Source: Promethearchaeia archaeon (lineage in GTDB: Archaea > Asgardarchaeota > Lokiarchaeia > Sigyniarchaeales > SOKP01). Taken from it: a stretch of DNA of 32,000 nucleotides. Every line of letters begins with the position of its first letter. Position 1 is the stretch's first letter. Below the pieces are notes generated by a model. The model had not been told where the DNA came from and searched no databases. It worked only from the letters and a program-made list of their open reading frames with translations. This document shows positions 1,764 through 24,077 of this stretch, piece by piece. Location of the stretch: contig JAWOFX010000019.1 of the NCBI GenBank assembly GCA_046497275.1, forward strand, positions 30,001-62,000, given 5' to 3'. The position numbers were made by a program, and so were the translations under genes.

Positions 1764-3308
1764 ATGTATGTCAGTGCTTTAGATTTAGGGACAACGGGTT
1801 GCAGAACCTATGTCTTTGACCTCGCTGGAACAGTTATTGCTTGGGATTATAGTGAATGGCAAAGCTTTTATCCCAAACCCTCATGGGTTGAGCAAAACGC
1901 AGATGAATGGTGGAATTCTATTAAATCAACTATAGACTCAGCTCTGAAAAAGAGTGGTATTGATATTACTGAAATAGTAAGTGTTTCAGTAACCAATCAA
2001 AGGGAAACTATAGTTCCCGTTGATAAAGAGGGAAATCCTCTACATAATGCATTAGTATGGCAAGATAGACGTACAACTAAACAAGTAGAATTTATTAAAA
2101 AGAAAATTGGAGAAGAAAAAATATATAATACCACGGGATTAACTATCGATCCATATTTTTCTGCAACTAAAATTCTTTGGTTTAAAGACAATAAACCCGA
2201 AATTTACAGAAAAACCCACAAATTTCTTCTGGTTTCAGATTTCATTATAAATAAATTGACTGGAAAATTTATAACCGATTTCTCAAATGCATCCCGAACA
2301 ATGCTTTTTGATATTAATAATTTACGATATTCTGAAGAAATAGCTTCTGATTTGGAAATCGATTTAGATAAGATGCCCGATCCTGTGGAAAGTGGAGTAG
2401 ATATTGGTGAAATTATCAATGATGAGACTTCATTTGATGAAAAAACATTAGTAGTAACTGGTGCAGGTGACCAACAAGCGGCTGCTTTAGGTGTTGGAGT
2501 AATTGGACCTGGAGATATAAAATGTACAACCGGTACTGGAAGTTTTATTTTAGCATATTTAAGCGAACCAAAATTTGACTCTGATAAACGTGTTTTATGT
2601 AGCTGCCATGCCATTCCTGGCAGTTGGGTTCAGGAAGCAAGCGTTTTCACTACAGGTGCAGTATTAAGATGGTTTAGGGATGAAATTGGTCATGCTGAAT
2701 GCCAAGAAGCGGAAGAAGAAGGTGCTGATCCCTATGATCTCATGACATCTTTAGCCGAGAAATCCACTCCCGGTGCAAATGGCTTATTATTAATTCCTCA
2801 TTTAGTTGGAGCAGGGGCTCCTCATTGGAATCCTTATGCAAGGGGAATTCTATTTGGACTTTCCTTAGGTCACAAAAGAAGGGATTTATATAGAAGTATT
2901 CTTGAAGGCGTTGCATTTGAAGTTAAAAAAAATATTGAAGTATTCAAACAAGTTGGTATCGAACCTTCAGAATTAAAATTAACTGGTGGTGGATCCCGTT
3001 CTGATTTATGGAATCAAATTATGGCGGATGTCTTGAATGTTTCTTGTGTTCGGAATGCGATTGAAGAAGCAACATCTCTCGGAGCAGCAATTTTAGCAGC
3101 ATCTGGAGCTGGAATATTCCCAGACATTTCGGAAGCAGCTAAGAATCTTTGCAAAGTTGATCAACGATATATTCCAAAAGAAAAAAATAATAAGATTTAC
3201 GAAAAATTATATCGCTTTTCTTATGATTTATATAATACTCTAAAAGGAAGGAATATTTACAAGATTTATAATGATCTTTATGAAGAAATTGAGTTTTCCG
3301 AAGATTAG
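1764..3308 (+). CDS. FGGY-family carbohydrate kinase, glycerol kinase-like (xylulokinase-like C-terminal half)
   Basis: Motifs DLGTTGCR, TNQRET, WQDRRT, DPYFSATK, NASRTMLFDI, GDQQAA, GTGSF, EGVAF, GGGSRSDLWNQIMADV. Confidence 0.85.
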   Translation: MYVSALDLGTTGCRTYVFDLAGTVIAWDYSEWQSFYPKPSWVEQNADEWWNSIKSTIDSALKKSGIDITEIVSVSVTNQRETIVPVDKEGNPLHNALVWQDRRTTKQVEFIKKKIGEEKIYNTTGLTIDPYFSATKILWFKDNKPEIYRKTHKFLLVSDFIINKLTGKFITDFSNASRTMLFDINNLRYSEEIASDLEIDLDKMPDPVESGVDIGEIINDETSFDEKTLVVTGAGDQQAAALGVGVIGPGDIKCTTGTGSFILAYLSEPKFDSDKRVLCSCHAIPGSWVQEASVFTTGAVLRWFRDEIGHAECQEAEEEGADPYDLMTSLAEKSTPGANGLLLIPHLVGAGAPHWNPYARGILFGLSLGHKRRDLYRSILEGVAFEVKKNIEVFKQVGIEPSELKLTGGGSRSDLWNQIMADVLNVSCVRNAIEEATSLGAAILAASGAGIFPDISEAAKNLCKVDQRYIPKEKNNKIYEKLYRFSYDLYNTLKGRNIYKIYNDLYEEIEFSED

Positions 3309-3409
3309 ATTATAATTTCTATATCTTTTCTTTTCCCTTTTTTCAAGATGTTAAAATTTAATATCCTATAATCCATATTTATATTAAATAAAAAAGTGAG
3401 TATAAAACA

Positions 3410-4009
3410 ATGAACGATATAATTAGTGAGTATTCTAATAGAAAAGAAATGGTTGCTACTGGATTTTATATTGCTCTCGTGGTTGCTTGGATCGTTACTA
3501 TTGCTGGAGCAATATATACTATCGCAGATATTCTTAACCCGACTGGTAAATTAGAAGCATTTCTGGATTTCAATATAGGTTATCAAATAGCAATTATTGG
3601 GGGTTTCTTAGCAGGATTATTTTTCTTGTTAATCTTCTTTATTGGATTTTATAAGAGAGGAACTGGTACTATTCTCAAAGTCCTTTATAAAAAGAGAGAG
3701 CTAGAGGAAAAATATAAAAACAGACTGGATATAAAAATTGTCGCTGCAGGATTTCTGGTATGTATAGTAGCTATTATTGTGGGTATTAGTATTGCATTAC
3801 TCTGGGATACTTTTTCAGGGGCAGAAAATCCACTTTTCTCTATCGTAGAAATATTGGAAACTTTTTCCAATGGGTTGTTAGTACTTTTTGCTGGAATTGG
3901 GTTATTCATTGTAATAGGGATAATAGTATTTATTATTTATTTCATAAAAAACGGTTATTATCTCGTGCTAAAGATCTTCGGAATAATAGAAAAAGAAACA
4001 TCACAATAA
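3410..4009 (+). CDS. Hypothetical integral membrane protein (about 4 TM, internal two-fold repeat)
   Basis: Four hydrophobic segments; two similar halves separated by a basic loop (YKKRELEEKYKNR). Confidence 0.7.
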   Translation: MNDIISEYSNRKEMVATGFYIALVVAWIVTIAGAIYTIADILNPTGKLEAFLDFNIGYQIAIIGGFLAGLFFLLIFFIGFYKRGTGTILKVLYKKRELEEKYKNRLDIKIVAAGFLVCIVAIIVGISIALLWDTFSGAENPLFSIVEILETFSNGLLVLFAGIGLFIVIGIIVFIIYFIKNGYYLVLKIFGIIEKETSQ

Positions 4010-4157
4010 ATAATTATTTAAAACTCTTTTCTTTAAACTTTATATTATTAACCAATTTTTTCTTAGATTTTTTTAATAATTCACCTAATAAGTATTAATT
4101 TGTTAAATTAAAAAATCAGCGGGGCAATTCAATTTATATTAGACCTTCTCATTTATT

Positions 4158-4177
4158 GAGATTAAAAATTTAATCTC
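4158..4177. promoter_or_regulatory. Inverted repeat GAGATTAAA-AA-TTTAATCTC upstream of herA (possible operator)
   Basis: Perfect 9-bp arms with a 2-nt spacer, lying between a TTTATA element (about 4133-4138) and the herA start. Confidence 0.35.
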
Positions 4178-4195
4178 TTTCATTAATTGATCATA

Positions 4196-5719
4196 ATGGC
4201 ACAAAAACACATTGGGACAGTATTTAATTATAAAGATTTACCTGATGTTGGTAAATTTCCTTTTATTATTAGTAAACAAACTCAAAAAAATGTAGTTAAA
4301 AAGGGATTGTTTGTTTATACGTATTCCTCTGAAGGTTTTTTAATTGGTATTATTGATAAGATAATTTTGATAAATGAATATTTCTCTGATGCATTAACTA
4401 TTAAAGCCTATAATGAAAATAATAACCCCAATATTTTGAAAGGCCTTTTTCCAAGTGAAGATTTTGAGTTTGCGATAGCTTTAGTAAAATCTCTTGGCAT
4501 TGTAGAATTCAAAGAACAAGAATCTAAGGAAATAATAAGAATACATCGTATGACCTTTCCCGCAACTCCTGGATCCGACGTTTATCTCATAGAGGAACAG
4601 ATTTTGAACGAATTTATTGGATTTGATATAAAGGGAGGGCTACACCTCGGAAATGTGAAAATTACGAACTTTAGAGCAAATGTAAATATGAATAGACTTC
4701 TTAATAAGCATTTTGCCATACTCTCGATATCTGGTGGTGGAAAAAGTTATCTAACTTCAGTTTTAATAGAAGAATTGTTGCTGAAGGATGAAGGAAATCC
4801 AGGAATAATTTTAATTGATGTTCATGGTGAATATTTATATTTAAAAGATATTCCAGAATTAAATGGAAAGGTTAATTTACAAGATACCACATATTTTCAA
4901 ATTGCTACACCTAAGGTATCTCCATGGTCTTTTAAGAAATATCAGCAACAAATTTCTTATGTACAAGTTAGAGAATTATCGAAATTCATTCAGAAATTAA
5001 AAAAAGATGAAGAGAAGAAGGGTAAATATTCAATTAATGATATTATCCAACTCATAGATAATGATTCTGATGGTAATAAAAGCACAAAACAAGCCTTAAT
5101 AGGTTGGTTGTCCCAATTAGAGAGATTAAATTTATTCGGTCCGCAAGAGAATCCACTTATTAAGAATATTATAAAAAAAGGAGAACTCACAATCTTTTCA
5201 TTACAAAAAGAGATAAATATCAAAAAAAAACAAATCATTGTGGATTATATTTGCAATCAGCTTTTTTATTTACGCCGAATGAATAAAATTCCCCCTTTCT
5301 TAGTGATTATTGAAGAGTCTCATCAATTTTGCCCAGAAGCCGCTCATTCCAAAGCAATATCTAAAAATATTATTGAAACAATTGCAAGAGAAGGAAGAAA
5401 ATTTATGGCCTGTTTATGTTTAATCTCTCAAAGGCCAAAAAAATTAAGTACAACTGCGCTGTCTCAAATGAACTCAAAATTGATTTTAAATATTAAAAAC
5501 CCCTACGATTTAAAGCATTTAATGGATAGTTCTGAGGCAATTACGAAAGAATATGCTGATATGATATCGAGTCTTGGTGTGGGGGAAATGCTATTAATGG
5601 GAAATGCTGTTAATTATCCTGTTTTTATTGATGTCAGAAAACGAAAATACAAATCCAAAAATGAAGATGTATCTCTTTCTGAGGTTTGCTTAAATTGGGA
5701 AAAAACCCATTTAGACTAG
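4196..5719 (+). CDS. herA: HerA/FtsK-superfamily ATPase (DUF87 type) with N-terminal HAS-barrel-like region
   Basis: Walker A variant SISGGGKS, DVHGEY, Walker B IIIEESHQF, arginine-finger motif REGRKF, ISQRP. Alternative TTG start at 4187. Confidence 0.85.
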   Translation: MAQKHIGTVFNYKDLPDVGKFPFIISKQTQKNVVKKGLFVYTYSSEGFLIGIIDKIILINEYFSDALTIKAYNENNNPNILKGLFPSEDFEFAIALVKSLGIVEFKEQESKEIIRIHRMTFPATPGSDVYLIEEQILNEFIGFDIKGGLHLGNVKITNFRANVNMNRLLNKHFAILSISGGGKSYLTSVLIEELLLKDEGNPGIILIDVHGEYLYLKDIPELNGKVNLQDTTYFQIATPKVSPWSFKKYQQQISYVQVRELSKFIQKLKKDEEKKGKYSINDIIQLIDNDSDGNKSTKQALIGWLSQLERLNLFGPQENPLIKNIIKKGELTIFSLQKEINIKKKQIIVDYICNQLFYLRRMNKIPPFLVIIEESHQFCPEAAHSKAISKNIIETIAREGRKFMACLCLISQRPKKLSTTALSQMNSKLILNIKNPYDLKHLMDSSEAITKEYADMISSLGVGEMLLMGNAVNYPVFIDVRKRKYKSKNEDVSLSEVCLNWEKTHLD

Positions 5720-5983
5720 TTCCTTTATAATTTTTTTCCTTATTGCTTTGGTATTTCGATTAAGAACAATCATTTTTTTACTTTTCGAAACCCGAAATAC
5801 ACTAATCATGTTAGAGCTCTCCATTTTCATAAAAATTTCTTGTAAAATATCTGAATTAATATATGGATGTTCTTTTTTTAATAACTCTTCAATTCTTCGA
5901 TCGAGAGCTTCTCCTCTTGCCTCTACAAGAATATCCACAATAGAATTTATTACGGGTCGTTTTTGCCATCTATCTATGATCAA
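5711..5983 (-). CDS. Small winged-helix-like protein directly downstream of cdc48
   Basis: 90 aa; three helices then a beta hairpin (MKMESSNMISVFRVSKSKKMIVL). TTG start preceded by AAGGAG. 3' end overlaps the herA stop by 9 nt. Confidence 0.65.
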   Translation of the reverse strand: MIIDRWQKRPVINSIVDILVEARGEALDRRIEELLKKEHPYINSDILQEIFMKMESSNMISVFRVSKSKKMIVLNRNTKAIRKKIIKELV

Positions 5984-6079
5984 TCAACTCCTTTTATTTA
6001 AATTTTTAATAGTCATATAGAAAAAGATATTTGAATACATTATAAAAAGATGATCAGTTGTTAATTAATTTTTTCTTCT

Positions 6080-8320
6080 TTAAACGAATAAGCCTTCTCC
6101 CTTCTTTGTTTCAATTTTTCTACGTTTGAGTTTTTTACCAAATTCCTCATACCACTTGGTTATCTCAGGTGTTATTGTAGGATGGATTTCTCCATGTGAC
6201 TCCTCAAAATGTTCCAGAGATACCTTTCTGGCACGAATATTTTCTCTTAAAGCTTTCATTGCCGCTTCTCTACACCAAGTTTCGATATCTGCTCCCGAAA
6301 ATCCATCAGTCATTTTTACTAGTTTTTTTAATTCAACATTGGTTGAAAGGGGCATTAACTTCGTGAATATTTTTAAGATCTCTAATCGTGCATTTTCATC
6401 CGGTGCGGGGATAAAAAGTATTCGATCTATTCTTCCAGGGCGTATTAATGCGGTGTCCAAAATATCTGGTCTGTTAGTGGCTGCAATAACTACCACATCT
6501 TTCATAACTTCTAATCCATCCAATTCTGTTAGGAATTGAGACAGAACTTTTTCTGTTACCCCTGAATCGGTGGTATATCTGCCTCTACTTGGTGCTATGG
6601 AATCAAATTCATCAAAGAAAATAATGCATGGTGCCGCCATCTTAGCTTTTCGAAATACTTCTCTGATAGCTTTTTCACTCTCTCCCACCCATTTAGAAAG
6701 GAGTTCGGGACCTTTTACAGATATAAAATTCGCCTTACTCTCAGATGCAACAGCTCTAGCTAATAATGTCTTTCCACATCCGGGAGGGCCATATAACAAT
6801 ATTCCTTTAGGTGGATTTATTCCCATTCTTTTGAATATTTTTGGATTTGATAATGGCCAATCCACCGCTTCGATTAGTTTTTGCTTTAATTCTTCCAAAC
6901 CACCAACATCATTCCAATTTACATTAGGAATTTCAACAAAAACCTCTCTAATCCCAGATGGTAAAACTTCTTTCATCGCTTCATCAAAATCTTCTCTTGT
7001 TACTCTGATTTGTTCCAAAAGCTCTGGATCAATGATCTCCGATTCTAAATCGATCTTTGGTAAATAACGTCTTAAAGCAGACATAGCTGCTTCTCTACAC
7101 ACAGCAGATATATCAGCACCCACAAAACCATGAGTAATTTGTGAGAAATCCTTAATTAATTGCTTTTTATCGTCTAAAGGCATATTACGTGTATGAATTT
7201 GGAAAACTTCTTTCCTACCTTTTTCGTTGGGAACCTTAATTTCAATTTCCCTGTCAAATCTACCTGGTCTTCGCAAAGCGGGATCTAAACTATTAGGCCT
7301 GTTCGTTGCACCAATTACGATTACTCTCCCTCTGCTATGTAATCCATCCATCAAAGCTAAAAGTTGGGCAACAACCCTCCTCTCAACTTCTCCAGTTACT
7401 GTCTCTCTTTTCGGGGCAATAGCATCGATTTCATCTATGAATATAATTGAAGGGCTTTTCTCTTCAGCTTCGATAAAGATTTTACGTAATTTTTTCTCTG
7501 ATTCTCCATAGAATTTACTCATAACTTCTGGACCATTAATAGATATAAAATGGGCTTCGCTTTCATTCGCAACTGCCTTTGCAAGTAAGGTTTTACCACA
7601 ACCAGGAGGTCCTCGGAGTAAAACACCTTTCGGAGGATCAATCCCGAGTCTTTTAAATAATGATGGATGCCTTAATGGAAGTTCTACCATCTCTCTTACT
7701 CTCTGGATTTCTCTATCTAATCCTCCTACATCTTCATATGTGATATATATGCCACCTTTTTCTTCCTCTTCCGTGACATGTTCACTTATAGATAAATTAG
7801 TCTCATCTTGCTTTATTATACAAATTCCTTTTGGTCTCAGATTGATTACTTTAAAGGTTATTTCTCTACTAATTCCTATTGATATTAGGATTATATCATC
7901 AATTGTTACTGGGTAATTGTTAAGTTTACGCTTCACAAATGTCTCAAATCGAGGATTACTTCTTATTTTGACACTTGCGGGTGCTAAGACAATATTTTGA
8001 GCCACCGCTGCCTCAACTTTACGGATTGTAACAGTATCATCTATACTCGTTCCTGTATTTTTACGCAATCGTGAATCAATCCTAACAATTCCGAGCCCAT
8101 TATCTTGAGGATAACTGGGCCAACTAATACCAGCTGATTCATTTTTACCTTTTATTGCGATTACATCGCCCGTTTGAATCTCTAACTCTTCCATCGTCTT
8201 GGGATCAATACGAATGATATTTCTTCCTATATCTCTTTTCTTAGCTTTTTGAACTCTAAGCTGCTTTCCCGGTTCCTCCTCTTCTCTCTTTTCCCCATCG
8301 CTACTATCAGAAGCTGTCAT
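6080..8320 (-). CDS. cdc48: Cdc48/VCP/p97 AAA+ ATPase (N-D1-D2)
   Basis: Double-psi N domain; two Walker A GPPGCGKT; Walker B IFIDEID and IFFDEFD; second regions of homology [18 protein letters not shown] and [18 protein letters not shown]. Confidence 0.97.
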
Positions 8321-8334
8321 AAATAATCAGTTAT

Positions 8335-8389
8335 GAAAAATTTTTGTGTATATAATATAGAATATTATTAAAATTAGAAAAATTTTTGT
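8335..8389 (-). promoter_or_regulatory. Putative cdc48 promoter: TATA (TTATATA, 8355..8349) flanked by two 13-nt direct repeats
   Basis: GAAAAATTTTTGT at 8335-8347 and 8377-8389; TATA-like element 29-35 nt upstream of the ATG at 8320. Confidence 0.4.
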
Positions 8390-8488
8390 ATTTTTTCTAT
8401 AATAACGATTTTTATTTTTACCATCCTATTAAAACCTATAAGAAATAAATCTCAATTATTATCTTTTTTAAATCTTTAATTCATTAAA

Positions 8489-9064
8489 TTATCTCATCTT
8501 ACGATTTCCAACATATCCCCCTAAAGTAAAATAACTTAGTTTCTCATAATAAAGAGGGTTCATAAGTCCTTTTTGCTTACATAAATTCTTTAAAAAAAGA
8601 TTTTCATTAATAAATAGAGCTACGACATTTGCTGTTATAATAACGCGATTTTCAGCCTCTTCTGAAATATCTTTTATCCAGATAGTTTTGCATTCCATGT
8701 GTGCGCAACATTCCATAATACTTGGTGGTCTCACTGTTTTAGAATTAATAGGTGTTAAATCGGCATGAATAAATTCATCCATATCAGAAGGGATGGGATC
8801 TGCTGTCCTATTAACCTTTCTCAGTAAATTAATATTCGGAATATTTAATACAAATTCATTTGAAGCTTTAATATTTCTATAAGTATCTCTATTTTTCGAG
8901 GAGCCAATTGATATAACTAATGGATAATATGAAACGGGCATAACCATTCCATAAGGAGCAATATTGTAAACATTATGTTCATCTACTGTTGAGATTAAAT
9001 AAACTGGTGCCGGTATAAAGCAAAGTGCATAATCTTTGGGTTCGATTTCCTTTTTCTTTTCCAT
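8489..9064 (-). CDS. Flavin reductase-like FMN-binding split-barrel protein (DIM6/NTAB family)
   Basis: P-x-PVYLIST, NIAPYG, RDTYRNIKASNEFVLNIP, KTVRPPSIMECCAHMEC. Confidence 0.85.
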   Translation of the reverse strand: MEKKKEIEPKDYALCFIPAPVYLISTVDEHNVYNIAPYGMVMPVSYYPLVISIGSSKNRDTYRNIKASNEFVLNIPNINLLRKVNRTADPIPSDMDEFIHADLTPINSKTVRPPSIMECCAHMECKTIWIKDISEEAENRVIITANVVALFINENLFLKNLCKQKGLMNPLYYEKLSYFTLGGYVGNRKMR

Positions 9065-11002: not shown

Positions 11003-11683
11003 ATGTTTAAACAATTTTTTTCAATGGAGTTATTCTTTAATATGGAATTTTTAAGTAAGGAAGAAAGGATACAAATTTTAAAAGACTGGGATCTATACGA
11101 TTTATCATTAAACATTCAAATAGTCAAAATTTTTGAAAATGTAAGAGATATCCGTTTTGGAAGAATGGGCTCTAGAGACCCCTTAGATGTCTATAAAGCG
11201 AATAAAGGAACATGTTCGGGAAAGAACTTTTTATTGCGAGAATTATATAAAGGAATTGGATTAAAAACAAAGGATATGATTTGCATGCAGCGTTGGAAAG
11301 ATTTAATATGGTTTCCAACTGATAAATATAAATTAGTACAATTTCCTGAAGAATTAAAACAGATGTTAGAAGACCACGAAATTATCGACTTTCATAACTA
11401 TGTCAAAATATTTGTAAATGATATTTGGATCCAAGTTGATGTCACAATTGACAAATCTCTTAAAAAACTCGGTTTTTTTACTACAGAAGATTGGGATGGA
11501 TTATCTGATATGCCACTTTGTTTTTGCGGAACTGATAAAGTTTGGGATTGTGGAGATAATGGACGAAATAAGAAAAAAGAATTAGTTCGTCAACTTCCTG
11601 AGCACATTGAATTAGCGAGAAATCAATTTCTTGAAAAAATGACAAAATGGATTGATAAACTAAGACAAAATAATGAAATATAA
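11003..11683 (+). CDS. Transglutaminase-like (papain-fold) protein
   Basis: Cys-His-Asp triad in the expected order and context: GTCSGKNFLL, DFHNYVKI, WIQVDVT. Alternative start ATG 11042. Confidence 0.65.
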   Translation: MFKQFFSMELFFNMEFLSKEERIQILKDWDLYDLSLNIQIVKIFENVRDIRFGRMGSRDPLDVYKANKGTCSGKNFLLRELYKGIGLKTKDMICMQRWKDLIWFPTDKYKLVQFPEELKQMLEDHEIIDFHNYVKIFVNDIWIQVDVTIDKSLKKLGFFTTEDWDGLSDMPLCFCGTDKVWDCGDNGRNKKKELVRQLPEHIELARNQFLEKMTKWIDKLRQNNEI

Positions 11684-17261: not shown

Positions 17262-18652
17262 TTCTATATAATGCGAAAATCTATAATAACAGTCTTTTAA
17301 GAGAGGGTGCAATTCATATTGAAAATGAAATTATTAAAAGTATTCATTTTGATATTTCTGAAAAGCAAATGGAATATCTAATATCTGAGAACGATGATGG
17401 CAAGGAAATTGATTGTCAAAACAAAATAATTTTACCTGGAATCATTGACATTCATGCTCATCTAAGGGATTTAAATCAAAGCTATAAAGAAACATTTTCC
17501 ACAGGAACAAAAGCAGCGGCTATTTCAGGAATTACAACTATATTTGATATGCCTAATACCGATCCTCCTGCGAATACATTTGAAACAGTAAAAGAGTGGA
17601 TGGATAAAGCTAAACAAAATATACACGTAGATGTGGGGTTTATTTCTGGACTACCGAATAGATTAAATGAAGAGGAAATAAAAAAGATTGTAGATTTGGG
17701 AGTGATTGGCTTTAAAATATATCCTCATGATCCTTTAACTGATTTAGATTGGAAAATTTCAGGAAATTTTAGATTACTTTTAAACCTTTCCTCTCGATAC
17801 CAAATTCCTATTTTTATCCATCCAGAATGGCCCCTTTCAAAGGAAGAAAAGGAAGAAATTTTTGAGGATTATATTTTCAGAAAATCTAACCTATTAAAAA
17901 TCCATGATGAGTTAAACCCTTGTAAATCAGAAACTCGTTTTGTAAAATTTGCTATAGAGAATTATCAAGATTTCATAGAAATAAATCATTTAGAACAAAA
18001 AGAATATCCTATAATTCATTTTTGTCATATTAGTTGTAAAGAAAGTTATTCTTTAATTAAATTGGCTTTGAAAGAAAATTCACATCCTCATATTAGTTAC
18101 GAGGTAACCCCACATCATTTATTATTATCAAATGATATTGTTTTAAGTAACCCTGCAATTGCTAAAGTCCTGCCCCCTCTCAGAGATAAAACCCATCCAG
18201 ATTTTCTATTTAAAGAATTTATCTCAGGAAATCTAATACTTATAGGAACTGACCATGCTCCTCATAGTTTAGACGAAAAATCGAGAGAATTTTTTGATGC
18301 TCCCTCGGGATTTCCGAGTTTAGAAACATATCCACTAGTTATTCTTCATAAAGTAAATAAATTTCAAGTATCATTAGAGAATTTTATAAAAGTTGCCTGC
18401 GAAGGCCCCGCAAACATTTTTAATTTAAAGGGTAAAGGATATATTAGAGAAGGATATGATGCAGACCTTCTAATAGTTGATAAAACTTCAGAATATCAAA
18501 TAAATCCGAAAAAGTTTAAATCCAAAGCAAAAATATCTCCATTTGAAAATTATACAACTAACATTCAAATATGGAAAGTTTTTCTTAGAGGAAAAGAAAT
18601 AAAACAAAATAAAAAGCCTTTTGGAAAGATAATTAAAAGAGAAAAATTATAG
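17258..18652 (+). CDS. pyrC: Dihydroorotase (type I cyclic amidohydrolase)
   Basis: DIHAHLRD, MPNT, GFKIY (carbamylated Lys), FIHPE, HFCHIS, EVTPHHL, PPLR, GTDHAPH. ATGA overlap with the upstream gene. Confidence 0.85.
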   Translation: MILYNAKIYNNSLLREGAIHIENEIIKSIHFDISEKQMEYLISENDDGKEIDCQNKIILPGIIDIHAHLRDLNQSYKETFSTGTKAAAISGITTIFDMPNTDPPANTFETVKEWMDKAKQNIHVDVGFISGLPNRLNEEEIKKIVDLGVIGFKIYPHDPLTDLDWKISGNFRLLLNLSSRYQIPIFIHPEWPLSKEEKEEIFEDYIFRKSNLLKIHDELNPCKSETRFVKFAIENYQDFIEINHLEQKEYPIIHFCHISCKESYSLIKLALKENSHPHISYEVTPHHLLLSNDIVLSNPAIAKVLPPLRDKTHPDFLFKEFISGNLILIGTDHAPHSLDEKSREFFDAPSGFPSLETYPLVILHKVNKFQVSLENFIKVACEGPANIFNLKGKGYIREGYDADLLIVDKTSEYQINPKKFKSKAKISPFENYTTNIQIWKVFLRGKEIKQNKKPFGKIIKREKL

Positions 18653-18703
18653 ACTATTACCCAAATAATTATTAAAAAAAAAATAATAAATTTTATACGA
18701 AAC

Positions 18704-19336: not shown

Positions 19337-19544
19337 TAATTTATTTCCATAAATAGTAATATAAAACTAAATCTTATTGGATTGATATAATTGATTATAT
19401 TTCCAAACAGATAGGTAATTTCACATAATAGTATCCAGAAATCTATTTATATTTAGATTAATTGATACATCATTAATCTTCAAAAAGCTATAAATAATAA
19501 CATATCAATATTCTTTACTATAATCTAAAAAAAATGAGAAAATA

Positions 19545-22337
19545 ATGTCAAAACTGAAAAACAAATCCTCTTTATTATTCACTATATGTACTATCACATT
19601 GATTTTAACCGGGGGAATGCTTTTCTTTTTGTTTCTTACTCCAACTGTAGGACAAACAAATGAACCAAAAGAAGTTTTAGTATTAAGTGGCGGGAAAGAT
19701 CAATCATTTATTCAGAGTTTAAAAATTGATTCAAGTAATTTTAATGTTGAGGTTAATAGGACATATGGGGTTAATCCACTTAATTTAAGTGGATATGACT
19801 TGGTTATAATTTTTGATGCGAATCTGTCATCTCAGCAAATATCCGGTCTTGTCACTTATGTGGAATCTGGAGGAAGTTCAATTATTTTTATGGGACCAAA
19901 ACTACACGCTAATGCAACCCTTTTAAAAAACATGGATCTAATAAATAATGCCAATGATTTGACTCTGAATAGAGAATCAATGCTTTCTTTGGTAAAAAAC
20001 GCAAGTACTCCAATTGGCAGTAAAATAGCATGGAATTCAGCTCCAGATTTGAAACCGAATAATATGACTTATATACCTTTAACAAATATGAACATTTCGA
20101 TGAATAGGATCGTTGATGTCTATAACACTTCTCTTAGTTTAAATAGAGAATCAAATAGGATTCCCTTTATTGCTGAAAAAGAGAAATCTAATGGGTCTAT
20201 TATGTTATTTACAGGTTGGCTTCAGAGAGATCCAAGTAACACTGAAAAGAGTGCAAATATTGAATTCTCTATTTGGCCTTATTTCAATTATCTCCTCTAT
20301 GGAATGGCACAACAGACATTAGATCAAGAAGTTGATACTTATGCTGTTTGGGCTTATTCACCCGTACCACATATTACAGAGCAATTTATTTTACTTCTTA
20401 TAGTTGTTGTCTTAGGATGTTTAGCTATTGCGTTATTTGTTACTGTGAAGAGAAAAAGTGGTGGAAGAATGGATCAGGCAACTATCGAAGCACTTAAAAA
20501 ACGTGCGGAGGAAGAACTTGAGGAAGAAATTACTGAACGAGCGGAACTTGAAAGAAAGATTGAAGAGCGAGGCAGAGAAGATCTAAAAGACGATTGGGAA
20601 ATTATTGGTATACATCGGCAATTAGGTGGCTTTTTGTTCACATTTTTTATAGGTTTAATCCTTGTTATTCCGCAACTTCTTTTAACATCTTATATCTTAC
20701 CCCTGTTGCTTGATTATACCTATGCTCAAGCAAGTGGATGGTATAATTATGCTTATAATCTATTTCAGATAGCATGGCTTCTTTTTGATTTCGGAACTTC
20801 CTATGCTCTTGCGAAATACTTCTCAGAATATAGAGTACATAATCCAGAGAAAGCTATACATTACATTCAAATTTTTGTATGGTGGCAGCTTTTTACTGGA
20901 TTAGTTCAAATTAGTATTTTTGCATTTTTAGGTTCCATAGTGTTTCCATTGACTAATCTGGCTCACATGACTTGGATTTTTGTAATGTTTTCTCTTGTTC
21001 AATATCCAGGGTTCTTTTTGGTGTTTATGTATACTTTTCAAGGACTACAGAGAGCAGATTTACATTTACTTACCTATGTCTCGTGGGAAATCTTTTGGTT
21101 ATTAATAGGTCAAGCAATATTCTGCTATTTAGGAAGATTATGGGGCGCAGCAAATCCAATTTTTGGTGAAGCATTAGGTGCTGGGGTGGGGTATGCCCTC
21201 GCACGCTATTTTGATTATTGGATGACCTTTTTCTTTAGTTTGTATCTTTTCAAGAAACAAGGATATTCCCCAAATACATGTTTTAGAGTCGATTTTACAA
21301 AAGATGAATTCAAAGAAACAATGTCTTATGGTTCAAGGCTGGCTTTCGGTGAATCTTTCGTCCAAATTGGATGGTTTATACAAATTCTTTTAACTTCCGC
21401 ATATATAGCAAATTATTCTCAAGAATTAGGATATTATCAACTCGCGTGGACTGTTGGGATGATGATTCAAATTATCACTCTTTACGGACAATCTTTATTA
21501 GGAGGGTATAGTGAAGCATATTCGCATGAAAAAGAAAACTTGACAAAATTGTATATATATGAAGGTTTTCGCTGGGGCAACTATTTTGGTTATTTCTTAA
21601 TATCTGTACTTTTTGCTGTAGGAAATCTTTTCCTAGTCGGTGCTGCTGGACCTGATATCGGAGGACCTGCTTCAAAGTATTTACCGCTTATTCTAGTATT
21701 CCATGGCTTCGGAATCTATTCTTGGTTAGTCGACGCAGTTTTCCAAGGTACTGGAAGGACTGGTTATGCTGCCGCAGTTTGGATTTTGGAACAAGCAATT
21801 AGAGCTCTATTTATGTGGGTTTTAGTCACTATTTTCTATGATATGAGAATGGTAATCATTGCTTATTGGCCAGCTGTTTTAACTAAGGATATAGTAGCAT
21901 GGATTATCGTAAGATCTAAAATTTCAGATTTCAAGCTCTATCCATTCAAAACTTTCATAACCCCCTTTATCGCTGCGGTAATAAACTTCTTCGTCCTTGG
22001 ATTTTTTGGAAATCTGGTGTTTAATTTAGAATTGGGAGATAAAATCATTAATACAGCATTAATATTTTTAGTGGGTGTCTTTATTTTTATATTCTTCTAT
22101 GCCTTTATAGAGGGTCTTTTGGGAGGATATGATGATAATACCCTCAAAGAATTCGAAAAAGCGTCTACTATGGTCAAAACCCCTTTAATTAGACATTTTG
22201 CCAGAGGAATCTATAAATCTGCCGAATTAGGTGCCAGAATAAGTCCTTTACATAATAAATTTCCAATCGATATATATGAGAGCGGAATGGAAGAGGCATT
22301 CGAACTAACCCTTGAAAAAAGACGATTAAAAATCTAA
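19545..22337 (+). CDS. Large membrane protein: N-terminal anchor, extracellular class-I-GATase-like domain, TM, acidic coil, then Wzx/MurJ (MOP superfamily) flippase-like domain
   Basis: Hydrophobic N-terminus; YDLVII...LVTYVESGGSSIIFMGP flavodoxin-like motif; 9 N-x-S/T sequons; about 12-14 C-terminal TM segments containing FDFGTSYALAKYFSE and a second repeat YSEAYSHEK. Confidence 0.7.
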   Translation: MSKLKNKSSLLFTICTITLILTGGMLFFLFLTPTVGQTNEPKEVLVLSGGKDQSFIQSLKIDSSNFNVEVNRTYGVNPLNLSGYDLVIIFDANLSSQQISGLVTYVESGGSSIIFMGPKLHANATLLKNMDLINNANDLTLNRESMLSLVKNASTPIGSKIAWNSAPDLKPNNMTYIPLTNMNISMNRIVDVYNTSLSLNRESNRIPFIAEKEKSNGSIMLFTGWLQRDPSNTEKSANIEFSIWPYFNYLLYGMAQQTLDQEVDTYAVWAYSPVPHITEQFILLLIVVVLGCLAIALFVTVKRKSGGRMDQATIEALKKRAEEELEEEITERAELERKIEERGREDLKDDWEIIGIHRQLGGFLFTFFIGLILVIPQLLLTSYILPLLLDYTYAQASGWYNYAYNLFQIAWLLFDFGTSYALAKYFSEYRVHNPEKAIHYIQIFVWWQLFTGLVQISIFAFLGSIVFPLTNLAHMTWIFVMFSLVQYPGFFLVFMYTFQGLQRADLHLLTYVSWEIFWLLIGQAIFCYLGRLWGAANPIFGEALGAGVGYALARYFDYWMTFFFSLYLFKKQGYSPNTCFRVDFTKDEFKETMSYGSRLAFGESFVQIGWFIQILLTSAYIANYSQELGYYQLAWTVGMMIQIITLYGQSLLGGYSEAYSHEKENLTKLYIYEGFRWGNYFGYFLISVLFAVGNLFLVGAAGPDIGGPASKYLPLILVFHGFGIYSWLVDAVFQGTGRTGYAAAVWILEQAIRALFMWVLVTIFYDMRMVIIAYWPAVLTKDIVAWIIVRSKISDFKLYPFKTFITPFIAAVINFFVLGFFGNLVFNLELGDKIINTALIFLVGVFIFIFFYAFIEGLLGGYDDNTLKEFEKASTMVKTPLIRHFARGIYKSAELGARISPLHNKFPIDIYESGMEEAFELTLEKRRLKI

Positions 22338-22344
22338 ATTATAC

Positions 22345-22361
22345 TTTTTTTTATTTTATTT
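22345..22361 (+). terminator. Oligo-T archaeal terminator after the flippase-like gene
   Basis: T8-ATTTTATTT, 8 nt after the stop codon. Confidence 0.45.
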
Positions 22362-22580
22362 AATCTAATAGACTTTCCTTAGTTTAATTAAGTTAAAAAA
22401 AGTAATCTTATTATAATTTTTATTATTTCTACCATAGATTAATATAATTTATAAGAAATAAGATTTTATATAGGAATTGGGGCTACTATTTTAGCATTGA
22501 TTAGTGCTGTCGATATGGATTAAAATTATGCTAAAAAATCTTCAAATATTTCTTTTTGTTAAAAAAATAGATAAAAATTA

Positions 22581-22934
22581 TTATTTATAAATTATACAAC
22601 TCATTAATGTAAAATTCCAAGGCGCCTGTGCACCATCATAGATTAAACAGTGAACATCTTCAGAACCTTCAATATCAGTATGTTTCTTAAACACTTGTAG
22701 TGCTAATTCTCCAATCATATCAGTATTTTCCACAACCTTTTCGAAATCTTTCTTGATACCGCCCCAAAATATTTTTTTCTCATCGATGATCTCTTTTAAT
22801 TGAACTAATTCCAGAAGATCTTCTCTTACTAAATTTTCTGTTACGCTGGAAAAATAATCACTAAATTTTTTTGAAACTTCTTCTGGAGTACCTTCATCCA
22901 TATTAAACAGAAACACAATCCCTATTGGATCCAT
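22581..22934 (-). CDS. Hypothetical acidic protein (117 aa)
   Basis: Clean ATG ORF with protein-like composition, isolated between AT-rich spacers. Confidence 0.7.
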   Translation of the reverse strand: MDPIGIVFLFNMDEGTPEEVSKKFSDYFSSVTENLVREDLLELVQLKEIIDEKKIFWGGIKKDFEKVVENTDMIGELALQVFKKHTDIEGSEDVHCLIYDGAQAPWNFTLMSCIIYK

Positions 22935-23165
22935 AATTAAACTCTCTCTATAAAAAAATTAATTTTTATTTAAAATGATTAAAAAAATTCAACTTTTTCT
23001 CATAAATCTTGTTTATCTTCATAACACATTCGATTTATTTAAAGTTTTTATTTATGTAAATTAAAATTAATAGTAAGATATTCTTAAAAATTAAAATTTA
23101 GATTTAGATAAAATATTTATTTCAAAACACTCACAAATTAGAGTTATTAATTTGAGGTAATATCG

Positions 23166-24008
23166 ATGAATTATGAATATAGTCATATTAAAGTTGAATT
23201 TCCTAAGAGTGAAGGAGGAAATATTGAAGAAAATTACGCCGTTATTTCCTTAAATCGTCCAGATAAATTAAATGCAATTACTCTAATAACTTTAAGGGAA
23301 ATTGTAAATGCTTTAGAATCAATGGAATTAAATTCGAATATAAGATGCGTCGTCTTAAGAGGGACTAAAAATTATACTAAAAAACCTTCATTTTCCACTG
23401 GAGCTGATCTGAGTAATCCTTTTGAACCTGGGATAAAACCAAATATTCCCATCCATATGACCTATGCAATTACCTTATTACATACTTGTTTCGATCTAAT
23501 CGAAAAATTTCCCAAACCTTTAATATGTGCTGTTGATGGGTTTGCCTTAGGAGGAGGATGTGAGCTTTCTTTAGTTTGTGATATAATTATCGCAAGTAAG
23601 AGGTCAACTTTTGGGTTTGCAGAAATTTTAAGAGGTATCTTTCCCTCTGGGGGAGGAACACAGAGAATAGTGAGAAATCTCGGTTTCGCAAGGAGTCTAG
23701 AGATGTTATATTTTGGAAAAAGATATTCTGCAGAAGAGATGTTTAAATGGGGATATGTGAGTTTTATTGCTGAGGATGGCGAGGAGTTTGAAAATTTAGT
23801 CCATGAAAAAGCAAAAGAATTAGGAAATTCTACTACTACCTCATTGAGTATTATTAAAAAATGCTTGAGATTTGGAACCCAAGTACCTATATCTATTGGT
23901 TTACAATTTGAACAACTTGGATTTGGTGTTAACTCAGCTGCCTCAGATGTACAAGAAGGTATCAAAGCTTTTTTAAGAAAGAAAAATCCAAAATATGAAG
24001 GATATTGA
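23166..24008 (+). CDS. Enoyl-CoA hydratase/isomerase (crotonase superfamily)
   Basis: LNRPDKLNA, FSTGADL (oxyanion hole 1), ALGGGCELSLVCD (catalytic Glu 1), FGFAEILRGIFPSGGGTQR (Glu 2), EGIKAFLRKK-x-P; SD GAGGT upstream. Confidence 0.92.
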   Translation: MNYEYSHIKVEFPKSEGGNIEENYAVISLNRPDKLNAITLITLREIVNALESMELNSNIRCVVLRGTKNYTKKPSFSTGADLSNPFEPGIKPNIPIHMTYAITLLHTCFDLIEKFPKPLICAVDGFALGGGCELSLVCDIIIASKRSTFGFAEILRGIFPSGGGTQRIVRNLGFARSLEMLYFGKRYSAEEMFKWGYVSFIAEDGEEFENLVHEKAKELGNSTTTSLSIIKKCLRFGTQVPISIGLQFEQLGFGVNSAASDVQEGIKAFLRKKNPKYEGY

Positions 24009-24077
24009 AATCTGAAGAAATTGTCCCATTAAAAAGAATATTTATTTAATAATATTAAGATCAAATAGGTTTGAAGT

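Follow-up and report, generated by a model that had tools for sequence, protein, structure and literature searches.

The window analysed here, a 32,000-nucleotide stretch of DNA from an Asgard archaeon, carries on its forward strand a complete open reading frame, P0001, that encodes a membrane protein built from two modules. On reading the sequence we found this frame exactly where an earlier note, made from the letters alone, had placed a 930-residue protein. The chain runs from an N-terminal anchor through an extracellular domain, a second transmembrane (TM) helix and a charged cytoplasmic linker to a 14-TM MOP transporter with a tail. The gene and its parts are as follows.

19489-19496, + strand: TATA-box-like element TATAAATA, preceded by an A-rich stretch
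19545-22337, + strand: open reading frame P0001, complete, 930 aa, TAA stop codon included
19563-19634, + strand: N-terminal hydrophobic anchor, about residues 7-30, hydropathy peak at 10-28
19650-20372, + strand: extracellular class-I-GATase-fold (ThuA/GIFT-like) domain, residues 36-276, ~240 aa
20031-20045, + strand: WNSAP, invariant ectodomain motif at the predicted docking interface
20274-20291, + strand: WPYFNY, invariant ectodomain motif at the predicted docking interface
20355-20372, + strand: YSPVPH, invariant ectodomain motif at the predicted docking interface
20373-20459, + strand: second TM helix, residues 277-305, leading the chain back to the cytoplasm
20460-20609, + strand: charged cytoplasmic helical linker, residues 306-355
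20610-21938, + strand: MOP core, TM1-12, residues 356-798
21411-21419, + strand: outer-loop motif N623-Y-S, kept in 25 of 30 homologues and at the predicted interface
21939-22124, + strand: TM13-14, residues 799-860, an extra helix pair as in MurJ
22125-22334, + strand: conserved three-helix cytoplasmic tail at the C-terminus, residues 861-930
22345-22362, + strand: T8 tract followed by T-rich sequence, resembling an archaeal terminator

The TATA region and T-tract described earlier are both in place, with the TATAAATA box ~27 nt upstream of the point where RNA-library contigs or adaptors start and the T8 tract beginning 8 nt past the stop codon. A contig of RNA run X4 begins at 19520 and an adaptor junction in run X5 falls at 19519, a 5′ boundary that is a weak hint because the two runs belong to a single study and the data are contigs, not reads. 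Metatranscriptome contigs of two studies cover the open reading frame, and RNA-library contigs cover positions 19520-22318 with zero mismatches, finishing over P0001 at 22297-22318; contigs cannot define the end of an RNA. The RNA runs were picked by the P0001 gene itself, so comparison of depth between genes was left unused, and places with no RNA-contig cover, such as 23024-24027 and 18004-18254, are uninformative. A joint of 22577 to 18670 may mark a deletion variant. An NCBIfam search assigned P0001 to no family, and Rfam and tRNA scans over the window returned nothing. No glycosyltransferase gene lies within 10 kb of P0001 in the window, in agreement with the earlier statement that the gene is not part of a glycosyltransferase cluster.

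Hydropathy analysis identifies hydrophobic segments at residues 10-28 and 281-299 and a polytopic region after them, the same succession of anchor, TM helix and polytopic C-terminal region that had been described. The folds and the docking discussed below are AF2 and ESMFold2 predictions, with the full-length model of P0001 reaching a pLDDT of 83 and a pTM of 0.81. In that model the N-terminal anchor has a pLDDT below 50 and lies outside the predicted interface; it may stay in place as a signal anchor or be cleaved off as a signal peptide. The second TM helix is predicted to lie against TM3 and TM4 of the MOP module. The charged coil reported earlier, KKRAEEELEEEITERAELERKIEER, is present at approximately residues 318-342, within a linker that is modelled as a helix over residues 311-342, with pLDDT below 50 at 334-348. 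The length of the linker varies among homologues (alignment A1), and its end is a conserved W-E-x-I-G-x-H-R-Q-L-G-G-F motif that is common to short paralogues.

The ectodomain is modelled with a pLDDT of 91, and its likeness to class I GATases, proposed from sequence motifs, is confirmed by profile and structure comparison. Its profile matches a single PDB sequence, 3rht_A (E 0.0022), and VIA-align gives Z scores of 20.4 for 2gk3_A, 19.9 for 3rht_A, 17.3 for ThuA, 14.2 for IFT52 and 12.8 for OST48, with scores of 20 against GATase1-like proteins and 10-12 against true amidotransferases. The nearest structures are 3rht from Planctomyces, 2gk3 (STM3548), 3soz and the ThuA structure 1t0b (Z 17-21, rmsd 2.1-2.8 Å), GATase1-like or ThuA-like proteins that, like the ectodomain, have no catalytic cysteine. 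The lack of a catalytic cysteine noted earlier in P0001 proved to be complete, with zero cysteines anywhere in residues 36-276, and the Cys-His-Glu triad is absent: an invariant G117 and then P118 occupy the nucleophile elbow, past the strand at residues 111-115. GATase1-like and ThuA-like proteins are soluble, and those from Salmonella (2gk3, 3soz) are cytoplasmic according to their depositors, whereas the ectodomain of P0001 is tethered to the membrane on both sides and carries docking motifs specific to its family. Its invariant residues sit on the surface predicted to dock with the outer loops of the MOP module and form no obvious pocket, which lends no support to the glycan- or ligand-binding role that the earlier note proposed.

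Pfam matches to the ectodomain are weak. Among 30 family members, ABC_transp_aux (GldG) is matched by nine (best E 0.0017), ThuA and IFT52_GIFT by two each and OST48_N by one (E 0.012), with the matches to ABC_transp_aux, IFT52_GIFT and OST48_N all sub-threshold. DUF7408 (PF24157) is matched at E ≤0.1 by five of the 30; P0091 reaches 29.1 bits against a gathering score of 27, and P0001 has no match. Searching the genome that contains P0001 with OST48_N and DUF7408 produced sub-threshold matches in unrelated frames only, and a search among shorter homologues for a stand-alone close relative of the ectodomain gave only three source-labelled partial entries. All nine N-glycosylation sequons counted previously are present (N71, N80, N93, N123, N152, N173, N183, N194 and N216), compared with 4.2 expected from composition shuffles (p ~0.012). 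The description of the domain as rich in sequons consequently holds for P0001 but not as a family trait, as homologues have 0-8 of them, with only N123 and N173 recurrent (15 of 30 each).

The C-terminal region had been likened to Wzx and MurJ, and the searches bear this out, with the region predicted to adopt a 14-TM MOP fold. PF01943 (Polysacc_synt) matches residues 398-645 of P0001 at 43.3 bits, above its cut-off of 28.2, and is matched at E ≤0.1 by 20 of the 30 family members; at that threshold none of the 30 matches the MatE Pfam. In VIA-align, residues 2-511 of MurJ (7wax) align with residues 358-874 of the model with a Z score of 24.6 and an rmsd of 3.6 Å over 488 residues, WzxE aligns over 361-795 with a Z score of 22.8, and MATE proteins align over 352-798 with Z scores of about 20-21. 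A Foldseek search likewise finds MurJ (E 2.5e-7) and WzxE (TMt 0.74) at a probability of 1.00. The cytoplasmic tail, with helices at 864-876, 880-899 and 910-927 in the model, carries the sequence GGYDD...ISPLHNKF...EA.ELTLEK, a family signature of both the fused and the short (~620-aa) forms in which D863, S900, E917 and A918 are invariant.

Structures of MurJ (7wax, 7wag, 6cc4, 6nc9) share with P0001 the 14-TM MOP fold, including TM13-14, and the cytoplasmic location of the MOP termini, but MurJ is only ~12% identical to P0001 and lacks its TM-ectodomain-TM module, charged linker and 70-aa cytoplasmic tail. The MurJ HMM (PF03023) has no match in P0001 (E ≤1), the 30 family members (E ≤0.1) or the P0001 genome, in a search whose controls matched in 12 genomes. 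To our knowledge, the Asgard host archaea have no peptidoglycan. The Rft-1 HMM (PF04506) has no match in the same genome or the 30 members, with the controls of that genome search matching nowhere, so a divergent relationship may still exist. WzxE (9g9n, 9g95), of the PST family, is like P0001 in Pfam family and fold but lacks an ectodomain and has only 12 TM helices. Glycan clusters are the usual setting of Wzx genes, whereas the P0001 gene lies outside any.

The sister clade of the fused proteins consists of ~620-aa Asgard proteins without the ectodomain. In three of the five cases examined, a separate TM-ectodomain-TM gene adjoins the short MOP gene, and in two of them it overlaps the start of that gene: by 4 nt in G313, where the MOP protein has 635 aa, and by 8 nt in L036, where the N-module protein has 332 aa (hhalign probability 98.7%) and the MOP protein 637 aa. 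In G180, a 354-aa N-module gene (hhalign probability 99.5%) is divergent from its MOP gene, while in L037 the 344-aa neighbour of P0205 is not an N-module and in L035 no N-module adjoins P0214. The ~330-aa gene called 'hypothetical' beside some short forms would correspond to the partner of the short MOP protein.

The split pair from L036 is predicted to bind, with ipSAE values of 0.80, 0.80 and 0.79 in three runs compared with 0.01 for the best control, although its members are two halves of one split gene, a type of pair that, according to the tool's own warning, is prone to pass. In calibration, 58 of 80 solved complexes reached the mark of this tool, as did 2 of 110 mismatched pairs, rates that are approximate here as our own alignments were used. 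The runs share at least 89% of their contacts, with a partner pLDDT of at least 79. We know of no solved complex that combines a MOP transporter with a GATase1-fold cap. The residues at the predicted L036 interface are the invariant columns of both modules, with WNSAP, WPYFNY and YSPVPH facing outer loops that include N623-Y-S, and the equivalents of the second TM helix (283-319) are predicted to touch positions equivalent to MOP residues 446-480. Because the split pair is predicted to bind through invariant motifs of both modules, the ectodomain is predicted to be a docked cap or partner subunit that is non-enzymatic. The coupling of the two modules suggested by the earlier note therefore gains support from natural split forms with adjacent or overlapping genes and from one split pair that is predicted to bind.

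Other exporters have comparable attachments. The N-terminal module resembles GldG of GldAFG-type ABC exporters (ABC_transp_aux), also a TM-GIFT/GATase1-like-TM unit attached to a membrane exporter, but the partner of GldG is an ABC transporter and that of the P0001 module is a MOP transporter. GldG is also larger and has a second domain. Mycobacterium tuberculosis MviN (Rv3910), in which MurJ is fused to a pseudokinase on the cytoplasmic side and a carbohydrate-binding domain on the extracellular side, is an exception to the generalization that flippases are normally stand-alone proteins. Like P0001, MviN is a single chain that unites a MOP flippase with an additional TM helix and an extracytoplasmic domain, but its additions are C-terminal and of unrelated folds, whereas P0001 has an N-terminal addition of GATase1 fold that is encoded by a gene of its own in other genomes.

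P0001 has 98 full-length homologues that are 25-95% identical to it. A search of 1.84 billion representatives gave only 897 matches, which shows a small family with sharp boundaries; the best 150 of these 897 matches are all fused or short forms of the family, and generic PST proteins fail an E value of 1e-3 against the family profile. The hosts are Asgard archaea and Chloroflexota, and the full-length architecture is kept across Asgard lineages and Chloroflexota, so that the fusion claimed for this locus is genuine. Of 90 good Asgard genomes, 39 are carriers, and within one genus the carriers are 11 of 28 species, while five complete genomes from the same family as the host are without the fusion, all of which possess ordinary PF01943 flippases of 420-570 aa. 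A family-wide scan found ~15 genomes with the fusion and a flippase, ~14 with the fusion only and ~20 with neither. The idea that the fusion and stand-alone PF01943 flippases exclude each other was dropped, there being no complementarity across genomes. The P0001 family is an accessory rather than a core function, common to Asgard archaea and Chloroflexota. In the literature on Asgard or Lokiarchaeota flippases, and on flippases with GATase1-like domains, we found no account of this architecture. It can be called undescribed in the sense that no paper found describes it, but its proteins are already in databases under generic flippase names.

No neighbour is conserved among the 18 Asgard and 13 Chloroflexota loci compared, and no Asgard or Chloroflexota relative examined has a conserved glycosyltransferase or polymerase context. 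Synteny with the window is limited to the genus (L021), with lineage-level synteny only elsewhere. Recurrent neighbours in Chloroflexota have no tie to glycan assembly: they encode NUDIX proteins, an ABC ATPase, HlyD and a response regulator. The L036 split pair, the only split operon that is well resolved, is flanked by genes for a GH4 glycosidase and a Gfo/Idh/MocA oxidoreductase, a setting that hints at soluble-sugar chemistry.

On balance, we lean towards P0001 being a single-chain, two-module machine that combines a Wzx/MurJ-like lipid-linked-glycan flippase with a non-catalytic outer cap. In this machine the C-terminal 14-TM module would most likely work by alternating access, carrying a polyprenyl-phosphate-linked glycan from the inner leaflet to the outer one, and the N-terminal TM-GATase1-fold-TM module would serve as a non-catalytic partner subunit that caps the outer face of the transporter. 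The second TM helix of the N-terminal module would pack on TM3 and TM4, and WNSAP, WPYFNY and YSPVPH would grip outer loops of both lobes (TM1-2, TM3-4, TM5-6, TM7-8 with N623-Y-S, and TM9-10). We infer that the cargo is a lipid-linked glycan, and the cap may receive, retain or gate the flipped head group, or pass it to a downstream enzyme. The machine may, as the earlier note proposed, serve surface glycosylation or lipid-carrier recycling. We know of no archaeal lipid-linked-glycan flippase that has been demonstrated biochemically. According to the model, an outer cap bridging both lobes would hinder outward opening unless one of its contacts were transient.

The lack of conserved glycan-assembly neighbours counts against a flippase, as do MATE Z scores of ~21 that approach the 24.6 of MurJ. 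P0001 could instead be a MATE-like exporter or importer of a soluble compound, for instance a metabolite derived from a sugar, with the ectodomain acting as a substrate-binding or regulatory lid. MATE structures align almost as well as flippases do over residues 352-798, glycan-assembly genes are absent near every locus examined, and the L036 pair sits between a glycosidase and an oxidoreductase of the Gfo/Idh/MocA type that ThuA-like domains frequently accompany (atlas rows). The L036 context is, however, one example, and the only Pfam family matched by the MOP part is PF01943 and not MatE. The top structural matches are MurJ and WzxE, and TM13-14, the pair that provides the lipid-tail groove in MurJ, is present and aligned. 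We consider a MATE-like transporter unlikely.

The genome that contains P0001 is 98.9% complete and encodes STT3, yet P0001 is its only PF01943 match and it has no match to PF13440, MurJ or Rft-1. P0001 could on these grounds be the dedicated flippase for N-glycosylation by the Asgard AglB (STT3), with its GIFT-like ectodomain a counterpart or forerunner of OST48/Wbp1. The GIFT domains of OST48 and Wbp1 (6s7o_G, 6c26_B) do resemble the ectodomain in fold (Z 12.8 and 12.3; Foldseek E ~1e-6) and are lumenal or extracellular, non-catalytic and located beside a machine that handles lipid-linked oligosaccharides, and one homologue weakly matches OST48_N, as described above. They are nevertheless clearly more distant from the ectodomain than the bacterial GATase1-like proteins with Z scores of 20. 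The patchy distribution of the family among Asgard genomes and within one genus, and its absence from five complete genomes of the same family, also argue against a dedicated role, as does the 100%-complete genome G083, which has neither the P0001 family nor any PF01943 match. Five Chloroflexota carriers have weak partial STT3-like matches, with one marginally over the cut-off (27 compared with 24.5 bits), and no Rft-1 match was found in the P0001 genome or the 30 members. We therefore regard the dedicated AglB flippase as improbable. Its stronger form is an ancient dedicated machine in which a GIFT ectodomain at the flippase exit physically receives the flipped lipid-linked oligosaccharide; in Asgard archaea this would be the prokaryotic forerunner of the eukaryotic arrangement, where a GIFT domain of OST48/Wbp1 handles the oligosaccharide next to STT3. 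This form appears highly improbable. The origin of the eukaryotic flippase step has been recorded as unclear (PMC4973528), and the forerunner, if true, would link the origin of the ER flippase step with that of an OST accessory subunit.

An ectodomain that acts on the exported product as an amidase, peptidase or glycan-modifying hydrolase would fit the class-I-GATase fold and the presence of related domains in the carbohydrate-active enzymes Agd3, PelA, NDST1 and GH42. The GATase-like domain of these enzymes is not known to be their catalytic domain. Residues 36-276 of P0001 are cysteine-free with Gly-Pro at the nucleophile-elbow position, and the invariant residues map to the predicted interface between the modules, making an enzymatic ectodomain very improbable; D91 is among the conserved residues that lie elsewhere. 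Finally, two-gene split forms in some relatives might suggest that two genes were joined in error during assembly or gene calling, but the chance of this is negligible given unbroken frames of ~900-940 aa in dozens of independent genomes, closed contigs included, an RNA contig (record 5, 20176-21007) that crosses the module junctions without a mismatch, and a MOP tree in which the fused clade separates from the short clade.

Annotators should be aware that a distinct two-module family lies behind the label 'oligosaccharide flippase family protein'. In this family a well-conserved MOP transporter occurs with an extracellular partner, either fused or as a separate protein, which makes it a convenient system for study. 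It allows one to ask what role a GATase1/GIFT-type ectodomain plays next to a membrane machine that handles glycans, how alternating access is possible with an outer cap in place, and which accessory glycoconjugate is common to the surfaces of Asgard archaea and Chloroflexota.

The open frame at 19545..22337 (+) is uninterrupted over 930 codons and encodes P0001, in a window whose gene content is archaeal (including FEN1, CDC48, SRP54, aIF5A and AMMECR1) with a GC content of ~30%; proteins nearly identical to those encoded carry database names from Lokiarchaeia/Promethearchaeota. As the earlier note described, P0001 has an N-terminal anchor and a later TM helix (residues 10-28 and 281-299 are hydrophobic), nine N-x-S/T sequons between both helices (N71, N80, N93, N123, N152, N173, N183, N194, and N216), a charged run past the second helix (KKRAEEELEEEITERAELERKIEER), and a long polytopic stretch toward the C terminus. 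The absence of a glycosyltransferase cluster also held, with no glycosyltransferase gene found in the window within 10 kb of the flippase ORF. Two other ORFs in the window have no Pfam match:
11003-11683 (+), ORF of 226 aa beside FEN1
22581-22934 (-), ORF of 117 aa convergent with the flippase gene
The 117-aa ORF is covered by RNA-library contigs in all four runs (about 22481-23011), has a counterpart with 72% identity in a same-genus genome, and is probably a real, expressed small gene.

The C-terminal part of P0001 matches PF01943 above the Pfam cut-off, with no match to the MurJ and Rft-1 HMMs. A full-length AlphaFold2 model was calculated with 30 homologues (pLDDT 83.4, pTM 0.81), and for the C-terminal part Foldseek returned the MOP-fold proteins MurJ, WzxE, and MATE proteins. 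In VIA-align, the whole length of MurJ (7wax, residues 2-511) aligns with model residues 358-874 (Z 24.6, rmsd 3.6 Å, 488 residues aligned), whereas the 12-TM WzxE and MATE proteins align with residues about 352-798. Therefore, the 12 to 14 TM helices proposed earlier resolve to a predicted 14, including the additional TM13-14 of MurJ, and both HMM and modeled fold place the gene in the MOP/PST family. Past TM13-14, the model has three conserved cytoplasmic helices (864-927), and its conformation is nearest to inward-occluded and inward-facing conformers. The predicted chain runs from a cytoplasmic N terminus through a TM helix, the external ectodomain, a second TM helix, a cytoplasmic linker, and 14 TM helices to a cytoplasmic C terminus. 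In MOP transporters both termini are cytoplasmic, and the topology of P0001 agrees with this rule.

Modeled separately, residues 36-280 (pLDDT 91) adopt a class-I-GATase fold according to both Foldseek and VIA-align. The closest relatives are the function-unassigned proteins 2gk3 (Z 20.4), 3rht (Z 19.9), and ThuA 1t0b (Z 17.3), followed by IFT52-GIFT (Z 14.2), OST48 (Z 12.8), and true amidotransferases (Z 10-12); only 3rht was found by the ectodomain sequence profile (E 0.0022). Sub-threshold Pfam matches among homologues are to ABC_transp_aux/GldG, DUF7408, ThuA, IFT52_GIFT, DUF4350, and OST48_N. The TM-GIFT-TM topology of GldG-type accessory subunits and the fold of OST48 both resemble the N-module (the TM-ectodomain-TM part), but the N-module falls below the threshold of either model. 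The earlier reading of a GATase-like domain that lacks the catalytic cysteine was borne out: the ectodomain contains no cysteine and its nucleophile elbow is an invariant Gly117-Pro, which rules out an amidotransferase. At L005, the locus of the fused Thorarchaeota-like homologue P0079, a 999-aa protein (3699-6698) with IFT52_GIFT, DUF4350, and ABC_transp_aux matches is encoded two genes upstream, as a second GIFT-type membrane protein nearby. The description of the ectodomain as sequon-rich is true of P0001, with nine sequons where composition shuffles predict 4.2 (p about 0.012), but not of its homologues, which have 0-8 and share recurrently only N123 and N173 (15/30 each).

P0001 is matched by 98 proteins of similar length, nearly all over the full length and with 25-95% identity, labeled Loki-, Thor-, Odin-, Hel-, Hermod-, and Hodarchaeota. 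The full-length profile retrieved 897 of 1.84 billion cluster representatives at E ≤1e-3 and 250 at E ≤1e-30, which separates the family sharply from ordinary PST flippases. In bacteria, its members are ~850 aa long and come from Chloroflexota (MAGs of Anaerolineae and Chloroflexia), and an ESM Atlas cluster of 896 members gives the same picture. The N-module occurs in 99/301 genomes of the phylum (39/90 good ones), is patchy inside genera (e.g. 11/28), and is truly absent from five complete genomes of the same family; the fused gene is an accessory gene. It is the sole PF01943 match in the source genome, where searches for PF13440, MurJ, and Rft-1 gave no match. Across the family, the fusion and ordinary flippases do not complement each other in distribution, and both are missing from some complete genomes. 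The source genome's STT3/AglB match (G000:C68:17506-18696) lies within an open frame that, at 1219 aa, is unusually long. The architecture had been called undescribed: literature searches for a flippase-GATase1-like architecture or Asgard flippases found no paper describing the fusion, but database entries exist under the generic names 'oligosaccharide flippase family protein' and 'lipopolysaccharide biosynthesis protein'.

In the search of cluster representatives, Asgard proteins of ~600-660 aa matched the profile only from position ~300 on, covering linker, MOP module, and tail. With 22-27% identity, these short forms, named 'hypothetical protein' in Loki- and Hodarchaeota, show both the shared W..IG.HR.LGGF motif and the signature of the C-terminal tail. 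A separate TM-ectodomain-TM gene adjoins the short-form gene in 3/5 surroundings examined, with none adjacent at L035 and L037:
L033 (genome G313), N-module gene with a 4-nt overlap between its stop and the start of the MOP gene
L036, N-module gene of 332 aa with an 8-nt overlap onto the start of the MOP gene, probability 98.7% in hhalign against the N-module profile
L032 (genome G180), N-module gene of 354 aa divergent from the MOP gene, probability 99.5%
In a quick maximum-likelihood tree built on the MOP module, two clades separate (SH-aLRT 99). The short clade holds 42 short forms, and three fused forms branch off at its base; the fused clade comprises one subclade from Asgard archaea and another that is arginine-rich and presumably from Chloroflexota. 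The tree requires at least four changes between fused and short states; because the root is midpoint only, we claim no direction. The pairing of ectodomain and transporter is conserved, fused or split, and the persistence of adjacency through fusion and fission is an argument for joint function of the two modules.

At L036, a same-strand run (2555-8517; gaps -8 to 129 nt) comprises a GH4 glycosidase, the N-module, the MOP gene, a 95-aa ORF, and a Gfo/Idh/MocA oxidoreductase, the sole context examined that hints at sugar chemistry. At L038 (4773-5339; G259:C1, about 4861772-4862338), a 188-aa frame in a one-contig genome joins the last third of the N-module (profile positions 214-296) directly to the C-terminal MOP tail (554-615), and resembles what an internal deletion would leave of a fused gene. 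At L039 (3017-5023; G162:C15), a 668-aa protein carries the N-module within its C-terminal half, at residues 289-642, after about 290 further residues, with no MOP gene in the 3 kb downstream; this genome also has two full fused copies.

Folded alongside controls, the L036 split pair reached ipSAE values of 0.80, 0.80, and 0.79 against 0.01 for the best control, with at least 89% contact agreement between runs and partner pLDDT of at least 79, although halves of a split gene are a class that the tool warns tends to pass. In its calibration, which is only rough here because own alignments were used, 58/80 solved complexes and 2/110 mismatched pairs reach the mark. No solved complex of such a pair is known to us. 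The predicted interface comprises, in P0001 numbering:
N-module: A162-W-N-S-A-P-D168; I243-W-P-Y-x-N248; Y271-S-P-V-P275; second TM helix
Transporter: TM1-2 loop 392-399
Transporter: TM3 and TM3-4 loop 446-477
Transporter: TM5-6 loop P538-L544
Transporter: TM7-8 loop 618-627, including N623-Y-S
Transporter: TM9-10 loop 699-711
These residues essentially coincide with invariant or near-invariant alignment columns in both modules. The strongest conservation of the ectodomain would thus reflect docking rather than a catalytic or ligand pocket, and the domain is best described as a non-catalytic cap predicted to dock on the transporter. N623-Y-S, found in 25/30 homologues, has the form of a sequon but probably serves the interface rather than glycosylation. 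Loops from each of the two lobes take part in the predicted contacts, in agreement with the model being inward-facing; outward opening would therefore have to loosen part of the contact, and a gating role for the cap is possible.

Upstream of the flippase ORF, a 208-nt AT-rich spacer contains a TATA box (TATAAATA, 19489-19496), and a T8 tract begins 8 nt past the stop codon. Salt-lake metatranscriptome contigs from two studies cover 19520-22318 with zero mismatches; an adaptor junction falls at 19519, ~27 nt past the TATA box, and the first base of one contig is 19520. Of the proposed monocistronic unit, the TATA box and T tract are present, while the start points are compatible with an independent transcript but offer a weak hint, since they come from contigs of one study with possible DNA carry-over. 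At two points, immediately before 17958 (three runs) and immediately before 22346 (two runs from two studies), RNA-library contigs end loosely in foreign sequence, and a single contig of run X6 links 22577 with 18670. Structure may vary between co-occurring strains precisely around the AMMECR1 and flippase genes, and some strains may lack them, which would be in keeping with the patchy distribution. At 18616-18667, in the spacer separating the amidohydrolase gene from AMMECR1, 47-50 nt are missing from contigs of two runs, with 14 other letters in their place in one; this is probably a strain indel.

Family membership, the MurJ-like TM13-14, and best structural matches to MurJ and WzxE suggest that the most likely cargo is a polyprenyl-phosphate-linked glycan; the cap would receive or gate the flipped head group. 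The protein may instead export a soluble substrate, given the Z of about 21 for MATE proteins and the GH4 and Gfo/Idh/MocA neighbors in the L036 operon. A specific role in AglB N-glycosylation is disfavored by the patchy distribution, by the Chloroflexota carriers searched, in which STT3-like matches are only weak and partial, and by an ectodomain that resembles bacterial GATase1-like proteins more closely than OST48. Mycobacterial MviN is a precedent for a flippase with an extracytoplasmic domain, but its folds and their order differ from those of P0001.
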